From the sequence record OZ335960.1: a stretch of DNA of 64,000 nucleotides. One strand, written 5' to 3'. Each line of letters begins with the position of its first letter. Positions within the stretch are counted from its first letter, which is position 1. The DNA comes from a phage. The position numbers and the translations under genes were made by a program. The notes under the pieces are model-generated. The model ran no database searches and was not told the DNA's origin. It worked only from the letters and a program-made list of their open reading frames with translations. Positions 1 to 61,951 of this stretch are shown here, piece after piece.

Positions 1-1836
<1,836 letters not shown>

Positions 1837-12834: not shown

Positions 12835-14253
12835 TTATGGATAGGTATAGATGATACCAGTTTCTAAAGCAGTTTTATGAATGATGTATCCATTACGTGA
12901 TTCTTGAACATCAACTTCTGGATAGTCTTTCATCATCTTCTGAAGAGTGTAACGATGCAGGTAGTATTTACTATCTGGATCTTCAGTTTTCCAATCTTTA
13001 CCTTCTTCGGTCATTTTTTGGATTTCATCCATAACCCACCAACCGCACCAGATATAAGCTGAAGTACGATGTGGAAGAGGATGAACATAAGGCAATTCAC
13101 CTTCTGGTTCCGGAGCAACTTTATCAGTTACCTGAACTTGGCCTGTTGCTTTAACTGTTTTACTATCATAGTCGGTTGCTGTAACGACAGCAGTAACTTC
13201 AATAGTTTGACTTCCAATAGATGAGGTGTCAACGGTGTATACGTTAGTTGACACTTCTACAGGAGAAGAATCTTTCTTCCATGAATAAGTAATTTGTGCT
13301 GCTTCAGGTGCTCCAGTAACATTAGCCGTAAATGTAGCCGAAGCATCTTGCTGAACGTTAATAGAAGGAGGAGTCAATGTAACCTGTGGATTCATTGTTT
13401 TCTTATTAACTGTCAATGATACTTCATTAGAAGTAACTTCCTTTTCATTGTAATTTTCTGCGGTTACTTGCGCTACACATTTAATTCTTTTTACTCCACT
13501 TGTAGTTGGAGTATAGTTAAATGTAGAGTTAGTTTCTCCACCAATTTGAGAATCATCTACATACCATTTATATGTAGCAGCCGCTCCATCAGGTTGAGAA
13601 GCTAAGGCAGCAGTAAATTGAACTGGGGTTCCAATTACTCCAGCTGAAGGACTATTAGGAGTTACAGCTAAGGTAGTTGTCTGCGTCTTTTTATTAACTG
13701 TCAGTGACACTTCATTAGAAGTAACGCTCAGTGCATCATAATCTGTCGCAGTTACTTGAGCTATGCACTTGATTTTTTTAACTCCACTTGTGGTAGGAGT
13801 GTAATTGAATGTAGCAGAAGTTGCTTCGCTTACAGGAGAACCGTCAACGTGCCATTGATACGTGGCAGTTGCGCCCGATGGCTGTGAAGCTAAGGCAGCA
13901 GTAAATTGGACAGCTGTTCCGATTACTCCAGCTGGAGGACTAGCAGGAGTTACTGCCAAGGTAGTTGTTTGTGTTTTATTTTTAACTGTGATAGTTGTAC
14001 TAATTTCTGCTGTTTCAGGTTCAGATTCTGCAACTTGATTGGTTGCAACTACTTTAATAGTCTTTTGACCGGCAGGTCCTTTTAGTACATAACTAAAAGT
14101 TGCTGACGTTTCTTCCTGTGGAGCGTCGTCTACAGTCCAAGCATATGTAATAGGTCCATCTCCAGTTTGACCACTGGGTGTAGCAGTAAACTGCTGAGTC
14201 TGATCTATAACTCCAGTAGGTGTTTTAGGAGTTATATCAACTGTAAAAGCCAT
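12835..14253 (-). CDS. hoc: Hoc, highly immunogenic outer capsid protein, with one extra Ig-like domain
   Basis: 472-aa ORF; N-terminal MAFTVDITPKTPTGVIDQ and C-terminal capsid-binding region (WCGWWVMDEIQK) as in T4 Hoc (376 aa as I recall); contains two consecutive ~96-aa near-identical Ig-like units. Confidence 0.92.
   Translation of the reverse strand: MAFTVDITPKTPTGVIDQTQQFTATPSGQTGDGPITYAWTVDDAPQEETSATFSYVLKGPAGQKTIKVVATNQVAESEPETAEISTTITVKNKTQTTTLAVTPASPPAGVIGTAVQFTAALASQPSGATATYQWHVDGSPVSEATSATFNYTPTTSGVKKIKCIAQVTATDYDALSVTSNEVSLTVNKKTQTTTLAVTPNSPSAGVIGTPVQFTAALASQPDGAAATYKWYVDDSQIGGETNSTFNYTPTTSGVKRIKCVAQVTAENYNEKEVTSNEVSLTVNKKTMNPQVTLTPPSINVQQDASATFTANVTGAPEAAQITYSWKKDSSPVEVSTNVYTVDTSSIGSQTIEVTAVVTATDYDSKTVKATGQVQVTDKVAPEPEGELPYVHPLPHRTSAYIWCGWWVMDEIQKMTEEGKDWKTEDPDSKYYLHRYTLQKMMKDYPEVDVQESRNGYIIHKTALETGIIYTYP
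13402..13977 (-). repeat. Tandem direct repeat of ~288 bp (2 copies) encoding duplicated Hoc Ig-like domain
   Basis: Hoc residues ~93-188 and ~189-284 are near-identical (KTQTTTLAVTP...NEVSLTVNK twice); the DNA is visibly similar between the two copies. Confidence 0.85.
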
Positions 14254-18790: not shown

Positions 18791-19540
18791 ATGGCAAACA
18801 TTATTCGTTGTAAATTACCAGATGGTGTTCATCGTTTTAAACCATTTACGGTAGAAGATTATCGAGATTTTTTGTTAGTTCGAAACGATATAGAACATCG
18901 GTCACCACAAGAACAAAAAGAAATAATTGCTGATTTAATTGCTGATTATTTTGGAGACTATCCGAAGACTTGGCAACCATTTATATTTTTACAGGTATTT
19001 GTAGGGTCAATAGGCAAAACTAAAGTACCAGTCACATTTGTATGCCCAAAATGTAAAAAAGAAAAGACAGTTCCATTTGAAATATATCAAAAAGAATTAA
19101 AGGAACCTATTTTTGACGTAGCTAATGTTAGAATTAAATTAAAGTTTCCTTCTGAGTTTTATGAAAATAAAGCAAAGATGATTACTGAAAATATTCATTC
19201 TGTCCAAGTAGATGAAATGTGGTATGATTGGAAGGAAATTAGCGAATCGAGTCAAATAGAACTTGTTGATGCCATCGAGATAGAAACATTAGAAAAAATT
19301 CTTGATGCAATGAATCCTATTAATTTAACATTGCATATGTCATGTTGTAATAAGTATGTAAAAAAATACACTGATATAGTAGATGTGTTTAAGCTATTAG
19401 TTAATCCAGATGAGATATTTACTTTTTATCAAATTAATCACACACTTGTAAAAAGTAATTATAGCTTAAATTCAATAATGAAAATGATTCCTGCTGAGCG
19501 CGGATTCGTATTAAAACTGATTGAGAAGGATAAACAATAA
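18791..19540 (+). CDS. 51: Baseplate hub assembly protein gp51
   Basis: 249-aa ORF, position 26/51/27 as in T4. Confidence 0.88.
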
Positions 19541-37242: not shown

Positions 37243-37475
37243 AGTACGCCATACACCCTTTGTGCTTCAACTAATCCATCAAAATCCAATTTGAGATGTG
37301 TTATTTGGTCACCATCACCTGGATTCACAATTACTAATACTGAACGAGGAGTTTCGGTAATAACGCGAACCGATGTTTCTGGAAATCGTTCAGAAACCTT
37401 ATTTACCAATTCCTGAGCAAATAGTTTAACTTTTTCTTGGAATTCTTTAACAGTAATTGGTTTTTCACTTAGCAT
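37239..37475 (-). CDS. Hypothetical protein (cd-pseT cluster)
   Basis: 78-aa ORF. Confidence 0.55.
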   Translation of the reverse strand: MLSEKPITVKEFQEKVKLFAQELVNKVSERFPETSVRVITETPRSVLVIVNPGDGDQITHLKLDFDGLVEAQRVYGVL

Positions 37476-37996
37476 GTTGATCCTAGCTCCTTACTTTCAA
37501 CGTTTTTAACTAATTTGACAGAAACTAATTCGGCATCTTGGGTAATCATTACCGGGCCTTCTTTATACTCTTCAAGATATTCTAGAGCTTTCTTTTTAGC
37601 TTCTTCCTTCGTATCAGTTTGAGCATAGATATAAAACATACAACCAGTAATACCTACTACTTTCCACTTAATTTCTTTATCAGTTTTAATTTCAAATTTA
37701 CTGACAGAATCATCTTTTTGAACTTCTTCGAAAAAAGAATATTCTAACATATAAGCAATTGAAAATAACGGGCTAACTTTATAGGATTCGCCCATTACAT
37801 CAACAGCTTTATACCAACAGTCATCAATTTCGCGTTTAATGCTAATAACATTTTTCGCAGGATCTATTTTTACTTTAAATGAATTTTCTCCAATAAACTG
37901 AGCAATTCGTTTATTAGCCCCGCAAGTTTCATTAAAAATATCTTTATATCCAGCTTTAAAGCGATAAACCTTATCTTCTTCAAACCATTCGCTCAT
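37469..37996 (-). CDS. Hypothetical protein (cd-pseT cluster)
   Basis: 175-aa ORF with early promoter and SD upstream. Confidence 0.6.
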   Translation of the reverse strand: MSEWFEEDKVYRFKAGYKDIFNETCGANKRIAQFIGENSFKVKIDPAKNVISIKREIDDCWYKAVDVMGESYKVSPLFSIAYMLEYSFFEEVQKDDSVSKFEIKTDKEIKWKVVGITGCMFYIYAQTDTKEEAKKKALEYLEEYKEGPVMITQDAELVSVKLVKNVESKELGSTC

Positions 37997-38026
37997 TTCA
38001 ATTTCCTCATTTGTTTTGGTAGAGCT

Positions 38027-48314: not shown

Positions 48315-49141
<827 letters not shown>

Positions 49142-49149
49142 TTTATCTC

Positions 49150-49485
49150 CTAATATAAAGGATCGGGAACATATCCACTAGCTTTAATCATTTTAATTAA
49201 TGTTAACATTCCTTTATTAACTGCTAGTGAAATTTCATCAAAAACTTCATCACTAAAAAGTTCTAACACGCCCTTCTGAACTTTTAGTTTACAGCCAACA
49301 ATTTCGTCATCGCCTATAGTAAATTCGTTTCCGCCAATTCCACCGAAAAACTTAATTACGCCAGTTAACTGTCTTCCACGAGAATATGGGTCGTGCGATA
49401 AAGTAATATGAGTCACCCCAGGTACAGTTTTAAATTGGCAGCGGATGTTTACTTGAGCAATTCCAGTTACATGAATGTCAGACAT
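49150..49485 (-). CDS. Hypothetical protein (frd-32 cluster)
   Basis: 111-aa ORF. Confidence 0.55.
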   Translation of the reverse strand: MSDIHVTGIAQVNIRCQFKTVPGVTHITLSHDPYSRGRQLTGVIKFFGGIGGNEFTIGDDEIVGCKLKVQKGVLELFSDEVFDEISLAVNKGMLTLIKMIKASGYVPDPLY

Positions 49486-49495
49486 AATATTTTCC

Positions 49496-49738
49496 TCAAA
49501 CAGTCTTTTTCACAATTTTCCAATCAGCTTTAAACTGTTCAACATCAGAATGGTAAATCCAGAATCCTGCGCTTTCTCCATCCTCGTAAAGAGGGCATCC
49601 ATCACATTCATCTTCCCATCCCATGTCACGCAAAAGATGTTCAGCTTTTTCAACAAGTTCAGAATCTTTACCGATGATATTAAAATACCATTTACCTCTA
49701 ACTTCTGAATCTTTAATACTCTGGCGTTGTAATCTCAT
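49496..49738 (-). CDS. Hypothetical protein (frd-32 cluster)
   Basis: 80-aa ORF with AAGGAG SD. Confidence 0.55.
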   Translation of the reverse strand: MRLQRQSIKDSEVRGKWYFNIIGKDSELVEKAEHLLRDMGWEDECDGCPLYEDGESAGFWIYHSDVEQFKADWKIVKKTV

Positions 49739-49847
49739 TTTATTCTCCTTAGCAAGCTTTAATCAAAAGATATAAACAGACCAACATAACTATTGCCATA
49801 ATATAAGGTGCGAACATTTTCTTTTCTCCATTAGTTTTGATAGGGTA

Positions 49848-49877
49848 ATAGTATCACACTACTACCCTTTTGTAAAC
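49848..49877 (-). promoter_or_regulatory. T4-type early promoter (GTTTAC - 18 bp - TACTAT)
   Basis: Minus-strand match upstream of ORF 49496..49738. Confidence 0.65.
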
Positions 49878-50263
49878 TACTTTTTGAAAGTTTTTCGCAA
49901 AAGTTCAATGATTTCATCTACATTGTTTTCGTCAACAATGCAGTGAATTTTTGTCACGCCAGAAACTATACCTTCATTAGCGGATTGAGGCTTTTCTAAA
50001 GTTACCTCAGTAAAGTATTTGAATTCTTCAGAGTAAATCTCAAAATACGTCTCAAGTGGGCCACCCGCCATGTATTCAGTGCCATCTTCCATAGTTACAC
50101 GTACCACACATTCACCAGCACAATCATCACTTTCCATTTCATCTACAACAAAACTAGGCCCGTGCTTCTCTATTAAATTTAGCATCATTACATTGCAACG
50201 GCACTCGTTAGCAAAGTCATTTTTAAATAAAGGGTTAATGATATAAGTTTTTCCAACTTCCAT
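49877..50263 (-). CDS. Hypothetical protein (frd-32 cluster)
   Basis: 128-aa ORF. Confidence 0.55.
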   Translation of the reverse strand: MEVGKTYIINPLFKNDFANECRCNVMMLNLIEKHGPSFVVDEMESDDCAGECVVRVTMEDGTEYMAGGPLETYFEIYSEEFKYFTEVTLEKPQSANEGIVSGVTKIHCIVDENNVDEIIELLRKTFKK

Positions 50264-53954: not shown

Positions 53955-56900
53955 ATGGCCGAGATTAAAAGAAAGTTCAGAGCAGAAGATGGTCTGGACG
54001 CAGGTGGCGATAAAATAATCAACGTAGCTTTAGCTGATCGTGCCGTAGGAACTGACGGTGTTAACGTTGATTACCTAATTCAAGAAAACACAGTTCAACA
54101 ATACGATCCAACTCGTGGATATTTAAAAGATTTTGTAATCATTTATGATAACCGCTTTTGGGCTGCTATAAATGATATTCCAAAACCAGCGGGAGCTTTT
54201 AATAGCGTACGTTGGAGAGCATTACGTACTGATGCAAACTGGACAACTGTTTCGTCAGGACCTTATCAATTAAAGTCAGGTGAATCAATTTCAGTTAATA
54301 CTGCAGCAGGAAATGATATCACATTTACTTTGCCAACTTCTCCAATTGATGGAGATACTATCGTTCTTCAAGATATTGGTGGAAAACCTGGAGTTAACCA
54401 AGTTTTAATTACCGCTCCAGTGCAAAGCATTGTAAATTTTAGAGGTCAGCAAGTACGATCAGTATTAATGACCCATCCAAAATCACAGATAGTTTTAATT
54501 TTTAGTAATCGTCTGTGGCAAATGTATGTTGCTGATTATAGCAGAGAAGCTGTAATTGTGACGCCAGCAAGTCTCTATCAGGCGCAGTCAAACGATTTTA
54601 TCGTACGCAGATTTACTTCTGCTGCTGCAATTAATATTAAACTTCCTAGATTTGCTAATCATGGCGATATTATTAATTTCGTTGATTTAGATAAATTAAA
54701 TCCTCTTTATCATACAATTGTCACGACATATGATGAAACAACTTCAGTACAAGAAGTTGGAACTCATTCTATTGAAGGTCGTACATCGATTGATGGTTTC
54801 TTGATGTATGATGATAATGAGAAATTATGGAGATTATTTGACGGGGATAGTAAAGCACGTTTACGCGTTATAACAACTAATTCTAATATTCGTCCAAACG
54901 AAGAAGTTATGGTATTTGGTGCGAATAATGGAACAACTCAAACAATTGAACTTCAGCTTCCGACCGATATTTCCATTGGCGATACTGTTAAAATTTCCAT
55001 GAATTACATGAGAAAAGGCCAAACAGTTAAAATAAAAGCTGCCGGTGAAGATAAAATTGCTTCTTCAGTTCAATTGCTGCAATTCCCAAAACGTTCAGAA
55101 TATCCACCTGAAGCTGAATGGGTGACTGTTCAAGAATTAGTTTTTAACGGTGAAACTAATTATGTTCCAGTTTTACAACTTGCTTATATCGAAGATTCTG
55201 ACGGAAAATACTGGGTTGTACAGCAAAACGTTCCAACTGTAGAAAGAGTTGATTCTTTAAATGATTCTACTAGAGCAAGATTAGGCGTGATTGCTTTAGC
55301 TACACAAGCTCAAGCTAACGTCGATTTAGAAAATTCTCCACAAAAAGAATTAGCAATTACTCCAGAAACATTAGCTAACCGTACTGCTACAGAAACTCGT
55401 AGAGGTATCGCAAGAATAGCAACCACTGCTCAAGTGAACCAGGACACTACATTCTCTTTTGCTGATGATATTATCATCACTCCTAAAAAGCTGAATGAAA
55501 GAACTGCTACAGAAACTCGTAGAGGTGTTGCTGAAATTGCTACGCAACAAGAAACTAATACAGGTACTGATGATACTACAATCATCACTCCTAAAAAGCT
55601 TCAAGCTCGACAAGGTTCTGAATCATTATCGGGTATTGTAACCTTTGTATCTACCGCGGGAGCTACTCCAGCTTCTAGTCGTGAATTAAATGGTACAAAT
55701 GTTTACAATAAAAACACTAATAATTTAGTTGTTTCGCCTAAAGCTCTGGATCAGTATAAAGCTACTCCAACACAGCAAGGCGCAGTAATTTTAGCAGTTG
55801 AAAGTGAAGTAATTGCTGGACAGAGTCAAGAAGGATGGGCAAATGCGGTTGTAACGCCAGAAACGTTACATAAAAAGACATCAACTGATGGAAGAATTGG
55901 TTTAATTGAAATTGCTACGCAAAGTGAAGTTAATACAGGAACTGATTATACTCGTGCAGTCACTCCTAAAACTTTAAATGACCGTAAAGCAACTGAAAGT
56001 TTAAGTGGTATAGCTGAAATTGCTACGCAAGTTGAATTCGACGCAGGCGTCGACGATACTCGTATCTCTACACCATTAAAAATTAAAACCAGATTTAATA
56101 GTACTGATCGTACTTCTGTTGTTGCTCTATCTGGATTAGTTGAATCAGGAACTCTCTGGGACCATTATACCCTTAATATTCTTGAAGCAAATGAGACACA
56201 GCGTGGTACACTTCGTGTAGCTACACAAGTTGAAGCTGCTGCAGGGACATTAGATAATGTTCTAATAACTCCTAAAAAGCTTTTAGGTACTAAATCTACT
56301 GAAGCGCAAGAAGGCGTTATTAAAGTTGCAACTCAAGTTGAAACTGTAGCTGGAACGTCAGCAAATACTGCTGTATCTCCAAAAAATTTAAAATGGATTG
56401 TACAGAGTGAACCTACTTGGGCAGCAACTACTTTGATAAGAGGTTTTGTTAAAACTTCATCTGGTTCAATTACATTCGTCGGTAATGATACCGTTGGTTC
56501 AACACAGTCATTAGAATTATACGAGAAAAATAGCTATGCAGTATCTCCATATGAATTAAACCGTGTATTAGCAAATTATTTGCCGTTAAAGGCAAAAGCT
56601 GCTGACACGAATTTATTGGATGGTCTAGATTCATCCCAGTTCATTCGTAGGGATATTGCGCAGACGGTTAATGGTTCACTAACCTTAACTCAACAAACGA
56701 ATCTGAGTGCCCCTCTTGTATCATCTAGTACTGCTACGTTTGGTGGATCAGTTTCGGCAAATAGTACACTAACTATTTCTAATACTGGAACAGCAACTAA
56801 ATTGATTTTTGAGAAAGGACCTCAAACTGGAACGAACCCAGCGCAGACGATGACTGTCAAAGTGTGGGGAAATCAATTTAGTGGGGAATCAGATACAACA

Positions 56901-57824
56901 CGTTCTACTGTATTTGAAGTTAGTGATGAAACGTCTAGTCATTTTTATTCTCAGCGCAATAAAGCTGGTAATATAACATTTAATATCAACGGTACAGTAA
57001 CTCCGATAAATGTTAATGCTTCAGGAACATTGAATGCAAATGGTGTAGCAACATTTGGTAATTCAGTCACTGCAAGTGGTGAAATTATTTCTCGAAGCGC
57101 AAATGCTTTCCGTGCTATTAACGGAAATTATGGTTTTATTGTTCGCAATGACGGGTCAGTAACGAATTTTATGCTTACTGCATCGGGCGATCAGACTGGT
57201 GGATTTAATGGATTACGTCCATTAACTATTAATAATGCATCTGGTCAAGTAACGATTGGTGAAAGCTTAATCATTGCCAAAGGTGCTACTATAAATTCAG
57301 GTGGTTTAACTGTTAACTCGAGAATTCGTTCTCAGGGTACTAAAACATCTGATTTATATACCCGTGCGCCAACATCTGATACTGTAGGATTCTGGTCAAT
57401 CGATATTAATGATTCAGCTACTTATAACCAGTTCCCAGGTTATTTTAAAATGGTTGAAAAAACTAATGAAGTGACTGGACTTCCATACTTAGAACGTGGC
57501 GAAGAAGTTAAATCTCCTGGTACATTGACTCAGTTTGGTAACACACTCGATTCGCTTTACCAAGATTGGATTACTTATCCAACGACTCCAGAAGCACGTA
57601 CCACTCGCTGGACACGTACATGGCAGAAAACCAAAAACTCTTGGTCAAGTTTTGTTCAGGTATTTGATGGAGGTAACCCTCCTCAACCGTCTGATATCGG
57701 TGCTTTACCATCTGATAATGCTACAATGGGGAATCTTACTATTCGTGATTTCTTACGAATTGGTAATGTTCGCATTATTCCTGACCCAGTGAATAAAACG
57801 GTTAAATTTGAATGGGTTGAATAA
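53955..57824 (+). CDS. 34: Long tail fibre proximal subunit gp34
   Basis: 1289-aa ORF (T4 gp34 length); internal degenerate repeats (ITPKKL...ATE..RG.A.IAT). Confidence 0.93.
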   Translation: MAEIKRKFRAEDGLDAGGDKIINVALADRAVGTDGVNVDYLIQENTVQQYDPTRGYLKDFVIIYDNRFWAAINDIPKPAGAFNSVRWRALRTDANWTTVSSGPYQLKSGESISVNTAAGNDITFTLPTSPIDGDTIVLQDIGGKPGVNQVLITAPVQSIVNFRGQQVRSVLMTHPKSQIVLIFSNRLWQMYVADYSREAVIVTPASLYQAQSNDFIVRRFTSAAAINIKLPRFANHGDIINFVDLDKLNPLYHTIVTTYDETTSVQEVGTHSIEGRTSIDGFLMYDDNEKLWRLFDGDSKARLRVITTNSNIRPNEEVMVFGANNGTTQTIELQLPTDISIGDTVKISMNYMRKGQTVKIKAAGEDKIASSVQLLQFPKRSEYPPEAEWVTVQELVFNGETNYVPVLQLAYIEDSDGKYWVVQQNVPTVERVDSLNDSTRARLGVIALATQAQANVDLENSPQKELAITPETLANRTATETRRGIARIATTAQVNQDTTFSFADDIIITPKKLNERTATETRRGVAEIATQQETNTGTDDTTIITPKKLQARQGSESLSGIVTFVSTAGATPASSRELNGTNVYNKNTNNLVVSPKALDQYKATPTQQGAVILAVESEVIAGQSQEGWANAVVTPETLHKKTSTDGRIGLIEIATQSEVNTGTDYTRAVTPKTLNDRKATESLSGIAEIATQVEFDAGVDDTRISTPLKIKTRFNSTDRTSVVALSGLVESGTLWDHYTLNILEANETQRGTLRVATQVEAAAGTLDNVLITPKKLLGTKSTEAQEGVIKVATQVETVAGTSANTAVSPKNLKWIVQSEPTWAATTLIRGFVKTSSGSITFVGNDTVGSTQSLELYEKNSYAVSPYELNRVLANYLPLKAKAADTNLLDGLDSSQFIRRDIAQTVNGSLTLTQQTNLSAPLVSSSTATFGGSVSANSTLTISNTGTATKLIFEKGPQTGTNPAQTMTVKVWGNQFSGESDTTRSTVFEVSDETSSHFYSQRNKAGNITFNINGTVTPINVNASGTLNANGVATFGNSVTASGEIISRSANAFRAINGNYGFIVRNDGSVTNFMLTASGDQTGGFNGLRPLTINNASGQVTIGESLIIAKGATINSGGLTVNSRIRSQGTKTSDLYTRAPTSDTVGFWSIDINDSATYNQFPGYFKMVEKTNEVTGLPYLERGEEVKSPGTLTQFGNTLDSLYQDWITYPTTPEARTTRWTRTWQKTKNSWSSFVQVFDGGNPPQPSDIGALPSDNATMGNLTIRDFLRIGNVRIIPDPVNKTVKFEWVE

Positions 57825-59675: not shown

Positions 59676-61125
59676 ATGGCTACTTTAAAACAAATACAAT
59701 TTAAAAGAAGCAAAACCGCAGGAGCACGTCCTGCCGCTTCAGTATTAGCCGAAGGTGAATTGGCTATAAACTTAAAAGACCGCGTACTTTTTACTAAAGA
59801 CGACCAAGGAAATATCATTGATCTTGGTTTTGCTAAGGGCGGTAGTATTGACGGGAATGTTATTCATATAGGAAACTATAATCAAACTGGTGATTATACT
59901 TTAAATGGCACCTTCACTCAGACGGGTAATTTTAATTTAATCGGTATTGCTCGAGTAACTCGCGATATTATTGCCGCCGGGCAGATTATGACCGAAGGCG
60001 GAGAACTTATTACAAAAAGTTCAGGTACATCACATGTTCGTTTTTTCGATAGCAATAGCCGCGAGCGCGGAATCATTTATTCTCCTGCTAATGATGGATT
60101 AACTACACAAGTACTTAATATCAGGGTTCAAGACTACGCCGCTGGTAGCGAAAGCACCTATGCATTTTCAGGCAATGGCCTATTTACTTCACCTGAAGTA
60201 TCAGCATGGAAATCTATGTCAACTCCTCAGATTTTGACCGATAAAGTTATTACAGATGGGAAGAAGACAGGCGATTATGACATCTATTCATTAGCAAATA
60301 ACACTCCATTGGCAGAAAGCGAAACGGCTATTAACCACCTCCGTGTTATGCGAAATGCCGTAGGATCTGGTATATTCCATGAAGTTAAAGATAACGACGG
60401 GATAACCTGGTACGCCGGTGACGGATTAGATGCCTATCTTTGGTCGTTTACCTGGTCCGGTGGATTGAAAGCAGGCCATTCTATTTCTATAGGTCTTCCG
60501 GGCGGCTCTAAAGGATATTCTGAATTAGGGACTGCTTCGATTGCTCTTGGTGATAATGATACTTGGTGATAATGATACTGGTTTAGTCCATGGCGGTGAT
60601 GGCCGAATCAATATGGTTGCCAATGGTATACATATTGCAAACTGGGGCGCAGGCTATCAATCTCATCCTGGGCTTTGGGATTCAACCGGTGCTTTTTGGA
60701 CAGAAGTTGGAAGAGCTATCGTTTCTCATGGGCATCTCGTTCAGGCAAATGATAGTTATTCAACGTTTGTCCGTGATGTTTATGTCCGTTCTGATATTCG
60801 CGTTAAAAAAGACCTCGTTAAATTTGAAAATGCTTCTCAGAAGCTTTCTAAAATTAACGGTTACACTTATATGCAGAAGCGAGGCCTAGATGGAGAAGGT
60901 AATCAGAAATGGGAACCTAACGCTGGTTTAATTGCTCAAGAAGTTCAAGCTATTTTACCAGAATTAGTTGAAGGCGACCCTGATGGCGAAGCTTTACTTC
61001 GTTTGAACTATAACGGTGTAATTGGTTTAAATACAGCTGCAATCAATGAGCATACCGCAGAAATTGCAGAACTTAAATCAGAAATCGAAGAACTTAAAGC
61101 ATTAGTTAAATCGTTGTTAAAATAA
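59676..61125 (+). pseudogene. 37: Long tail fibre distal subunit gene 37, frameshifted by a 16-bp tandem duplication; C-terminal intramolecular-chaperone-like domain
   Basis: N-terminus MATLKQIQFKRSK...AINLKDR...DLGFAKGG is gp37-like; reading frame stops at 60567-60569 just after the duplicated ttggtgataatgatac; the +1 frame continues without stop to 61125 and ends ...SDIRVKKDL...GLIAQEVQAILPELV...[19 protein letters not shown], a motif I associate with tail-fibre intramolecular chaperones. Confidence 0.8.
60547..60578 (+). repeat. Perfect 16-bp tandem duplication (ttggtgataatgatac x2) inside gene 37
   Basis: Read directly from sequence; 16 is not a multiple of 3, so the second copy shifts the frame. 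Confidence 0.95.
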
Positions 61126-61144: not shown

Positions 61145-61951
61145 TTGGAGGTTTATATGGCAGTTGAAGGACCGTGGGTAGGATGGTCTGCAGTAGTTAA
61201 TACAGGACAAAATTGGATGGGTGGTGCGGCCCAACGATTAAGAATGGGCATTCCGTTCTGGATGAGTAATATGATAGGTCGATCCGTTGAAGTAATTCAC
61301 ACACTTGGAGCAGACCATAACTTCAATGGTCAATGGTTCCGAGATAGATGTTTTGAGGCAGGTAGTGCACCCATAGTGTTTAATATCACAGGAAATTTGG
61401 TATCATATTCTAGAGATGTTCCTTTATTCTTCATGTATGGAGATACACCAAATGAATATGTTCAGTTGAATATTAGCGGTGGAGCTCATATGTGGGGCAG
61501 AGGTGGACAAGGTGGGTGGACTCATTCTGGTGGAGATGGTAATGGTCAACAGGGTGGACATTGTATTCAAAATGACATTGGTGGTCGATTAAGAATTAAT
61601 AATGGTGGAGTAATTTGTGGCGGCGGTGGCGGCGGTGGCGGCATCGCTTATCGTCCTCACTCTGGTGCAAACTGGCAAGATATTGGTGGCGGTGGAGGAA
61701 GACCATTTGGCCCAGGAGGTGGCGGTGGTTATTCAGGAGGTGCTGCTTCTTATGACGGTCCAGGAGGCGGTTATAATTATGGTAATGCTCACTCTGGACA
61801 GGGTGGTGATGCTGGCGGAAATGGACAAAATGCCTGGTATGATGGTGGTAAAGTTCTAAAAGTTGGCGCTGGCGGGGCTGCAGGTTATGCTGTAATAGGG
61901 TCTGCTCCAACATGGCAAAATGTTGGAATAATATATGGTCCAAGAGTATAA
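61145..61951 (+). CDS. 38: T2-type receptor-recognising adhesin gp38 (glycine-rich motifs)
   Basis: 268-aa ORF; [25 protein letters not shown] and poly-Gly motifs ([19 protein letters not shown]) as I recall for T2/K3-type gp38; true start may be ATG at 61157. Confidence 0.85.

Follow-up and report, generated by a model that had tools for sequence, protein, structure and literature searches.

A doubled 16-bp box in gene 37 of a T2/T6-type phage record appears to mark a missing fibre shaft and is most likely a finishing artefact

Gene 37 is split by a perfect tandem duplication of 16 bp in the stretch of phage DNA analysed here (64 kb, referred to below as the window), and the question raised by this locus is whether the doubled box belongs to the phage or was introduced when the record was made. 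The window is from a T2/T6-type Tequatrovirus and shares about 94% identity with numerous Escherichia and Shigella phages. The tail fibre genes are arranged in the order gene 34 (53955–57824), gene 35, gene 36, the split gene 37 and gene 38, followed by the holin gene t. The features referred to below are:

1..3, plus strand, start codon (ATG) of the terminase large subunit gene gp17, at the very first base of the window; positions 1–120 align with the annotated terL start of phage wV7
59011..59667, plus strand, gene 36 (hinge connector, distal), an intact ORF of 218 aa (Pfam PF03903)
59676..60569, plus strand, 5′ part of gene 37; codons 1–296 match the N-terminus of full-length gp37, and a frameshift TGA forms the end
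60547..60562, plus strand, copy 1 of the 16-mer, assigned to box A; the left context is the box A context of relatives
60563..60578, plus strand, copy 2 of the 16-mer, assigned to box B; the right context is the box B context, with the apparent seam at 60562/60563
60562..61125, plus strand, 3′ part of gene 37 in the +1 frame, with the gp38-binding tip and the C-terminal chaperone domain
60790..60969, plus strand, Peptidase_S74 intramolecular chaperone domain (Pfam PF13884, E = 2.2e-12), residues 367–426 of the reconstructed protein, starting SDIRVKKD
61157..61951, plus strand, gene 38 adhesin, intact and full length (Pfam Gp38_N and GP38)

The 16-mer TTGGTGATAATGATAC was found at 60547–60562, with the second copy back to back at 60563–60578. 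Tandem Repeats Finder reported a repeat at 60546–60579 (period 16, 2.1 copies, 100% match), and with up to one mismatch allowed the 16-mer was present at only these two sites within the 64-kb window. In 100 dinucleotide-preserving shuffles there were on average 0.01 matches, and two matches were seen in 0 of 100; the doubled 16-mer is far beyond chance. The first-pass annotation had reported perfect adjacent 16-bp copies at the LGDxxTG box, and the coordinates, the repeat finder and the shuffles all agree with it. Perfect tandem duplications with a unit of at least 10 nt were found at only two places in the 64 kb, here and at 18924–18947. The latter is a 12-bp repeat (two copies of TAATTGCTGATT) inside gp51 that is identical in wV7, and it is therefore a conserved in-frame feature and no artefact. 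The duplication at 60547–60578 is the sole non-conserved example. Two less exact repeats were also seen. An imperfect 21-bp tandem repeat (90%) at 61058–61098 encodes the heptad-like AEIAELKSEIEELK at the C-terminus of the gp37 chaperone domain, and a 288-bp unit is present twice with 77% identity at 13403–13989, which lies in hoc by collinearity with wV7. Repeats of Ig-like domains are expected in hoc.

The single uninterrupted reading frame expected of a T2/T6-type gp37 is absent. The first ORF (59676–60569) terminates in SIALGDNDTW followed by the TGA at 60567–60569, which is created by the frameshift, and a second ORF containing LGDNDTGLVHGGDGRINMV continues in the +1 frame up to 61125. 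That the repeat breaks the frame, and that deleting one copy mends it, had both been proposed earlier; both hold, and when one copy of the 16-mer was deleted in silico a continuous ORF of 477 codons was obtained. No other gene was found to be disrupted among the reference ORFs of at least 90 aa compared with wV7. A generally poor assembly was considered and rejected, as only gene 37 is broken relative to wV7. Most of the differences from relatives in the two gene 37 halves are synonymous (18 synonymous and 3 nonsynonymous in one example, 6 and 2 in another), and decay was not seen in gene 37 or gene 38. Two regions of the window, 37474–38002 and 48897–49884, align poorly or not at all with wV7 and are probably variable accessory-gene regions; the rest is collinear at 93–97% identity.

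If the sequence is taken as written, gene 37 might still be expressed across the break: ribosomes could shift into the +1 frame, or they could re-initiate at an ATG made by the duplication at 60556 (MILGDNDTG...). The two ORFs do overlap by 14–29 nt, and within the overlap this ATG is preceded by GGTGAT. However, neither a slippery sequence nor any other site known to be prone to shifting is present, the spacing of the Shine-Dalgarno-like sequence is only 1 nt, the N-terminal fragment would be made without the C-terminal chaperone domain, which acts in cis, and no relative shows such an arrangement. We regard expression by either route as having a negligible probability, and programmed frameshifting and re-initiation were rejected on sequence grounds.

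The comparison with relatives placed the two copies in a different light. A megablast search with the split gene 37 against 50,697 phage records matched 629 records, none of which covers at least 80% of the split gene in one place, and the two halves are adjacent in 0 of the 629. Matches to the 5′ part stop at 60562–60563 and those to the 3′ part begin at 60563, and in the relatives about 1.86 kb separates the two halves. In phage KNP5, for example, gp37 residues 1–296 match the 5′ part with 99.7% identity (tblastn), with gene 36 immediately upstream, and residues 914–1103 match the 3′ part. Identical gene 36 proteins are on record in many T-even genomes. The gp37 proteins of relatives are 900–1103 aa in length, so the ORF restored by removing one copy, though it is in frame as the first-pass annotation had predicted, is at 477 aa not a normal gp37; it joins the 296 N-terminal residues to the tip and the chaperone domain.

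Full-length gp37 was found to contain the LGDNDTG-type motif ([LI]GDNDTG) twice. Box A reads SIA[LI]GDNDTGFKWHQDG and is at about codon 291; box B reads C[LI]VIGDNDTGLVHGGDGRI and is at about codon 917, where the gp38-binding tip starts. In the 14 full-length relatives with both boxes the spacing is 1875–1896 nt, with one exception of 1269 nt, and it is always a multiple of three. The exception is Escherichia phage Ec_MI-02 (GenBank accession number OP856590.1), which has a natural gp37 of 900 aa with the boxes about 609 nt closer than usual. Two further records of relatives are of note for their annotation: gene 37 of Shigella phage sb4 (GenBank accession number PQ666542.1) is annotated as three separate CDS, and GCA_032868875.1 has an intact gene 37 ORF of 1080 aa yet no gene call on record in the gene index.

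Because the matches to relatives break exactly at 60562/60563, copy 1 corresponds to box A, copy 2 corresponds to box B and the shaft between them is missing. From the alignments, then, the repeat appears to be the seam of a gap of about 1.86 kb between two paralogous boxes. The copies are not, as the earlier description implied, a duplication of a single box in a gene 37 that is otherwise normal; they represent two different boxes that are about 1.88 kb apart in all of the full-length relatives examined, and about 1862 nt are absent. The missing segment is 16 nt short of 626 codons and so not divisible by three, and without it gene 37 lacks the central shaft, which accounts for about 400–620 residues between the boxes in relatives. 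The gp37 middle segment was found nowhere else in the 64-kb window, where the search returned only distant paralogy to gp34.

The extent of the repeated unit is also predicted by the relatives. The left flank of the box is closest to phage P8 (98.3%), while over 300 nt the right flank is closest to Ec_YwIITB1 (99.7%) and sb4 (99.0%). Phage P8 has the identical 16-mer at box A, flanked by c on both sides, and box B of Ec_YwIITB1 is flanked by a on the left and t on the right. These nearest relatives for each side predict a block common to box A and box B of exactly 16 nt, the same as the duplicated unit. In-register identity between the two boxes extends over only 11–17 nt in relatives. A codon typical of box B in copy 1 (GGT as against GGA) would favour a fusion followed by a duplication, but box A varies among relatives at this codon, and the 16-mer at box A of P8 is identical to that in the window.

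The end points of the missing segment are thus direct repeats (box A and box B) in relatives, and two complete copies are kept at the junction in the window. A single illegitimate deletion of 1862 nt would produce the same sequence if it happened to begin directly after box A and to stop directly before box B, and there is one base (T) of microhomology at the junction. Both limits would, however, have to coincide by chance with the edges of the one 16-mer that is repeated in gene 37, and there is no known mechanism by which the inner edges of a direct repeat would be preferred. A deletion of this kind is very improbable. Deletions bounded by a short direct repeat are known from T4, where they are formed by UvsX-dependent minihomology recombination, but after recombination of this kind only one of the two copies remains (PMC8262927), and the window has both. 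A single copy of the box was seen only in one metagenome scaffold with a different sequence background, considered below; in full-length relatives the copies are at different sites.

The explanation that we favour, at somewhat better than even odds, is that the seam is an untrimmed contig join made during genome finishing and that the phage itself lacks it. The window opens on the A of the terL ATG, which indicates that the record was cut, re-joined and re-oriented to terL. Re-circularising phage genomes to terL is common practice (PMC11601643). For the ends of the contig to have lain at the box, we infer, as the simplest origin, a sample containing both full-length genomes and a variant with a deletion between box A and box B, so that the assembly graph would branch at the box. 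From the way in which assemblers are expected to behave, such a mixture should give a de Bruijn branch flush with the common 16-mer at any k-mer size. The long contig would then begin with the box and the sequence to the right of box B, and finish with the sequence to the left of box A and the box, while the middle piece of about 1.9 kb would emerge as a separate small contig. If this long contig was then treated as the complete genome and re-oriented to terL, its ends may have been concatenated without removing the 16-nt overlap. Two complete copies would be kept because both ends finished in the common 16-mer, where recombination would have left one. A later independent duplication of 16 bp would need to have the length and position of the common block, which favours the join.

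A mixed lysate is plausible, as variants of phage PP01 with deletions in gene 37 appear within 2–3 passages (PMC6027323). The junction resembles an untrimmed terminal overlap in a rotated phage contig, in that the duplication is perfect, the unit is a sequence common to both ends and the record starts with terL. It differs from the usual untrimmed overlap in that the 16 nt correspond to the length of a paralogous motif and not to an assembler k-mer length, and in that the join hides a segment of about 1.86 kb rather than closing a complete circle. Several points count against a join. Many pipelines would merge a 16-nt overlap or insert Ns. If the record is straight de Bruijn output that was not joined manually, k-mers spanning the two boxes must exist in the reads. 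The join made on rotation could also lie in the approximately 100 kb outside the window. Lastly, real single-box deletions exist, and a real allele here is not far-fetched. A reference-guided consensus that dropped an uncovered region was also considered and rejected, as the sequence to the right of box A (GFKWHQDG) is conserved in relatives and coverage would not be expected to end flush with the box.

Evidence for a single-box allele came from a search with the reconstructed 477-aa protein, which found another gp37 (P0001) that is also 477 aa and is 88% identical over the full length. This protein is encoded on a metagenome scaffold of 165,631 bp (ERZ28583736, sample SAMN13279041) in a normal T-even context, and the gene 37 of the scaffold is uninterrupted and contains a single box. 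The same protein has a Logan entry as well, and to judge from the source list the second contig encoding it is presumably a Logan contig. Logan contigs hold only 31-mers found at least twice in reads (PMC12424806) and, with only 11–17 nt of identity between the boxes, the single-box junction was very probably present in real molecules. The deletion variant needed by the contig-join model does, therefore, exist. The metagenome allele has flanks most similar to those of OES_C-3 and P8, and the window has flanks most similar to those of P8 and Ec_YwIITB1; the two fusions therefore arose in different backgrounds. Minihomology recombination of the T4 type is a plausible origin for the fusion in the metagenome scaffold. 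A degenerate single-box fusion pattern recovered no further fusions in three contig collections, and the exact 32-mer containing both boxes had 0 matches in the viral, metagenome and genome contig collections. No recorded protein was identical to gp34, gp35, gp38 or either gene 37 fragment of the window, and E. coli genomes and plasmids likewise gave no match.

Alternatively, the sequence may be correct and represent a null allele made in two steps, namely an in-frame deletion of 1878 nt between box A and box B, followed by a 16-bp slippage duplication of the fused box. The first step, by minihomology recombination or slippage, would give a 477-codon allele like that of the metagenome scaffold, which is independent and appears to be supported by reads. 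T4-type phages form deletions between short repeats, deletions in gene 37 are readily selected, CT dinucleotides flank the 16-nt unit and would provide microhomology for slippage, and the rest of the window is clean. Such a phage would, however, have lost the tip of the long tail fibre. In established T4 biology a phage that is null for the long tail fibre, having no fibre tip, should not propagate, and the allele should not be the consensus of a propagated phage. The duplication, though independent, must also coincide in size and location with the 16 nt common to the two boxes, the lack of decay in gene 37 and gene 38 is not what is expected of a null allele, and the doubled box is absent from all of the public collections scanned. 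We consider this two-step history unlikely, at roughly a one-in-five level of belief. The first-pass annotation had offered a choice between a recent slippage mutation and an assembly error; the second is now favoured. Simple slippage also leaves the identity of the unit with the block common to both boxes unexplained.

It is less likely again that the phage truly has a single-box, in-frame gene 37 of 477 codons and a short distal half-fibre, the extra 16 nt being a local mistake of consensus calling or polishing that has nothing to do with contig ends. The same 477-aa architecture is present in an independent genome, and broken gene 37 genes do occur in the public records of viable phages, among them the three CDS of sb4. 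The structure of the S16 gp37 tip bound to gp38 (PDB 6F45) is also of interest here. The 3′ part of gene 37 matches it with E = 8.8e-46 and aligns with it from just before box B onward, and the construct starts ALGSASIAIGDNDTGL, an arrangement like the left context of box A fused to the right context of box B. With this construct start (ALGSASIAIGDNDTGLRWGGDG), the fused junction ELGTASIALGDNDTGLVHGGDG mimics a natural tip. The S16 gp37 is, however, a natural protein of about 750 aa, whereas the resemblance here comes from fusing two distant boxes. An exact 16-nt tandem insertion is untypical of read or polishing errors, a local error would leave unexplained why the inserted unit is the homology block, and no cultured relative has the short form, as is evident from the 629 matching phage records in which the halves are never adjacent.

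Loss of part of the shaft from a T2-type gp37 is known in PP01 and natural relatives; the PP01 variants arise quickly and can coexist with or replace full-length gene 37 (PMC6027323). The PP01 deletions are 579–686 bp and lie at 1945–2650 of the gene, a size similar to the natural shortening in Ec_MI-02. Here, 1862–1878 nt or about 57% of the protein is missing, the loss lies between the boxes and the frame is broken as written. By analogy with the Peptidase_S74 family, the short gp37 would cleave itself before SDIRVKKD, and the mature protein would then have about 366 residues. We tentatively suggest, as a possibility to which we give rather less than even weight, that box-to-box recombination recurrently gives viable T2-type phages with a mature gp37 of about 366 rather than about 990 residues and a distal half-fibre about one third of the normal length, and that a short-fibre variant was present in the population of this phage, as in the independent metagenome genome with its different background. 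Such a variant could perhaps be selected like the smaller deletions in gene 37 of PP01.

The doubled box is most likely a finishing artefact and not a real feature. If the seam is an artefact, the record is without about 1.9 kb of the main host-range gene and needs correction, and any comparison of tail fibres or prediction of host range based on it would be in error. As a diagnostic, a tandem repeat with a unit equal to a paralogous motif, in a genome that has been rotated, marks a dropped segment. Loss of the gp37 shaft by box-to-box recombination is an event of a known type, and the biological residue of this locus is modest but real. Recombination at the two LGDNDTG boxes can excise the entire gp37 shaft in frame, for which there is one independent example, and this is relevant to how far the fibres of T-even phages can be shortened.
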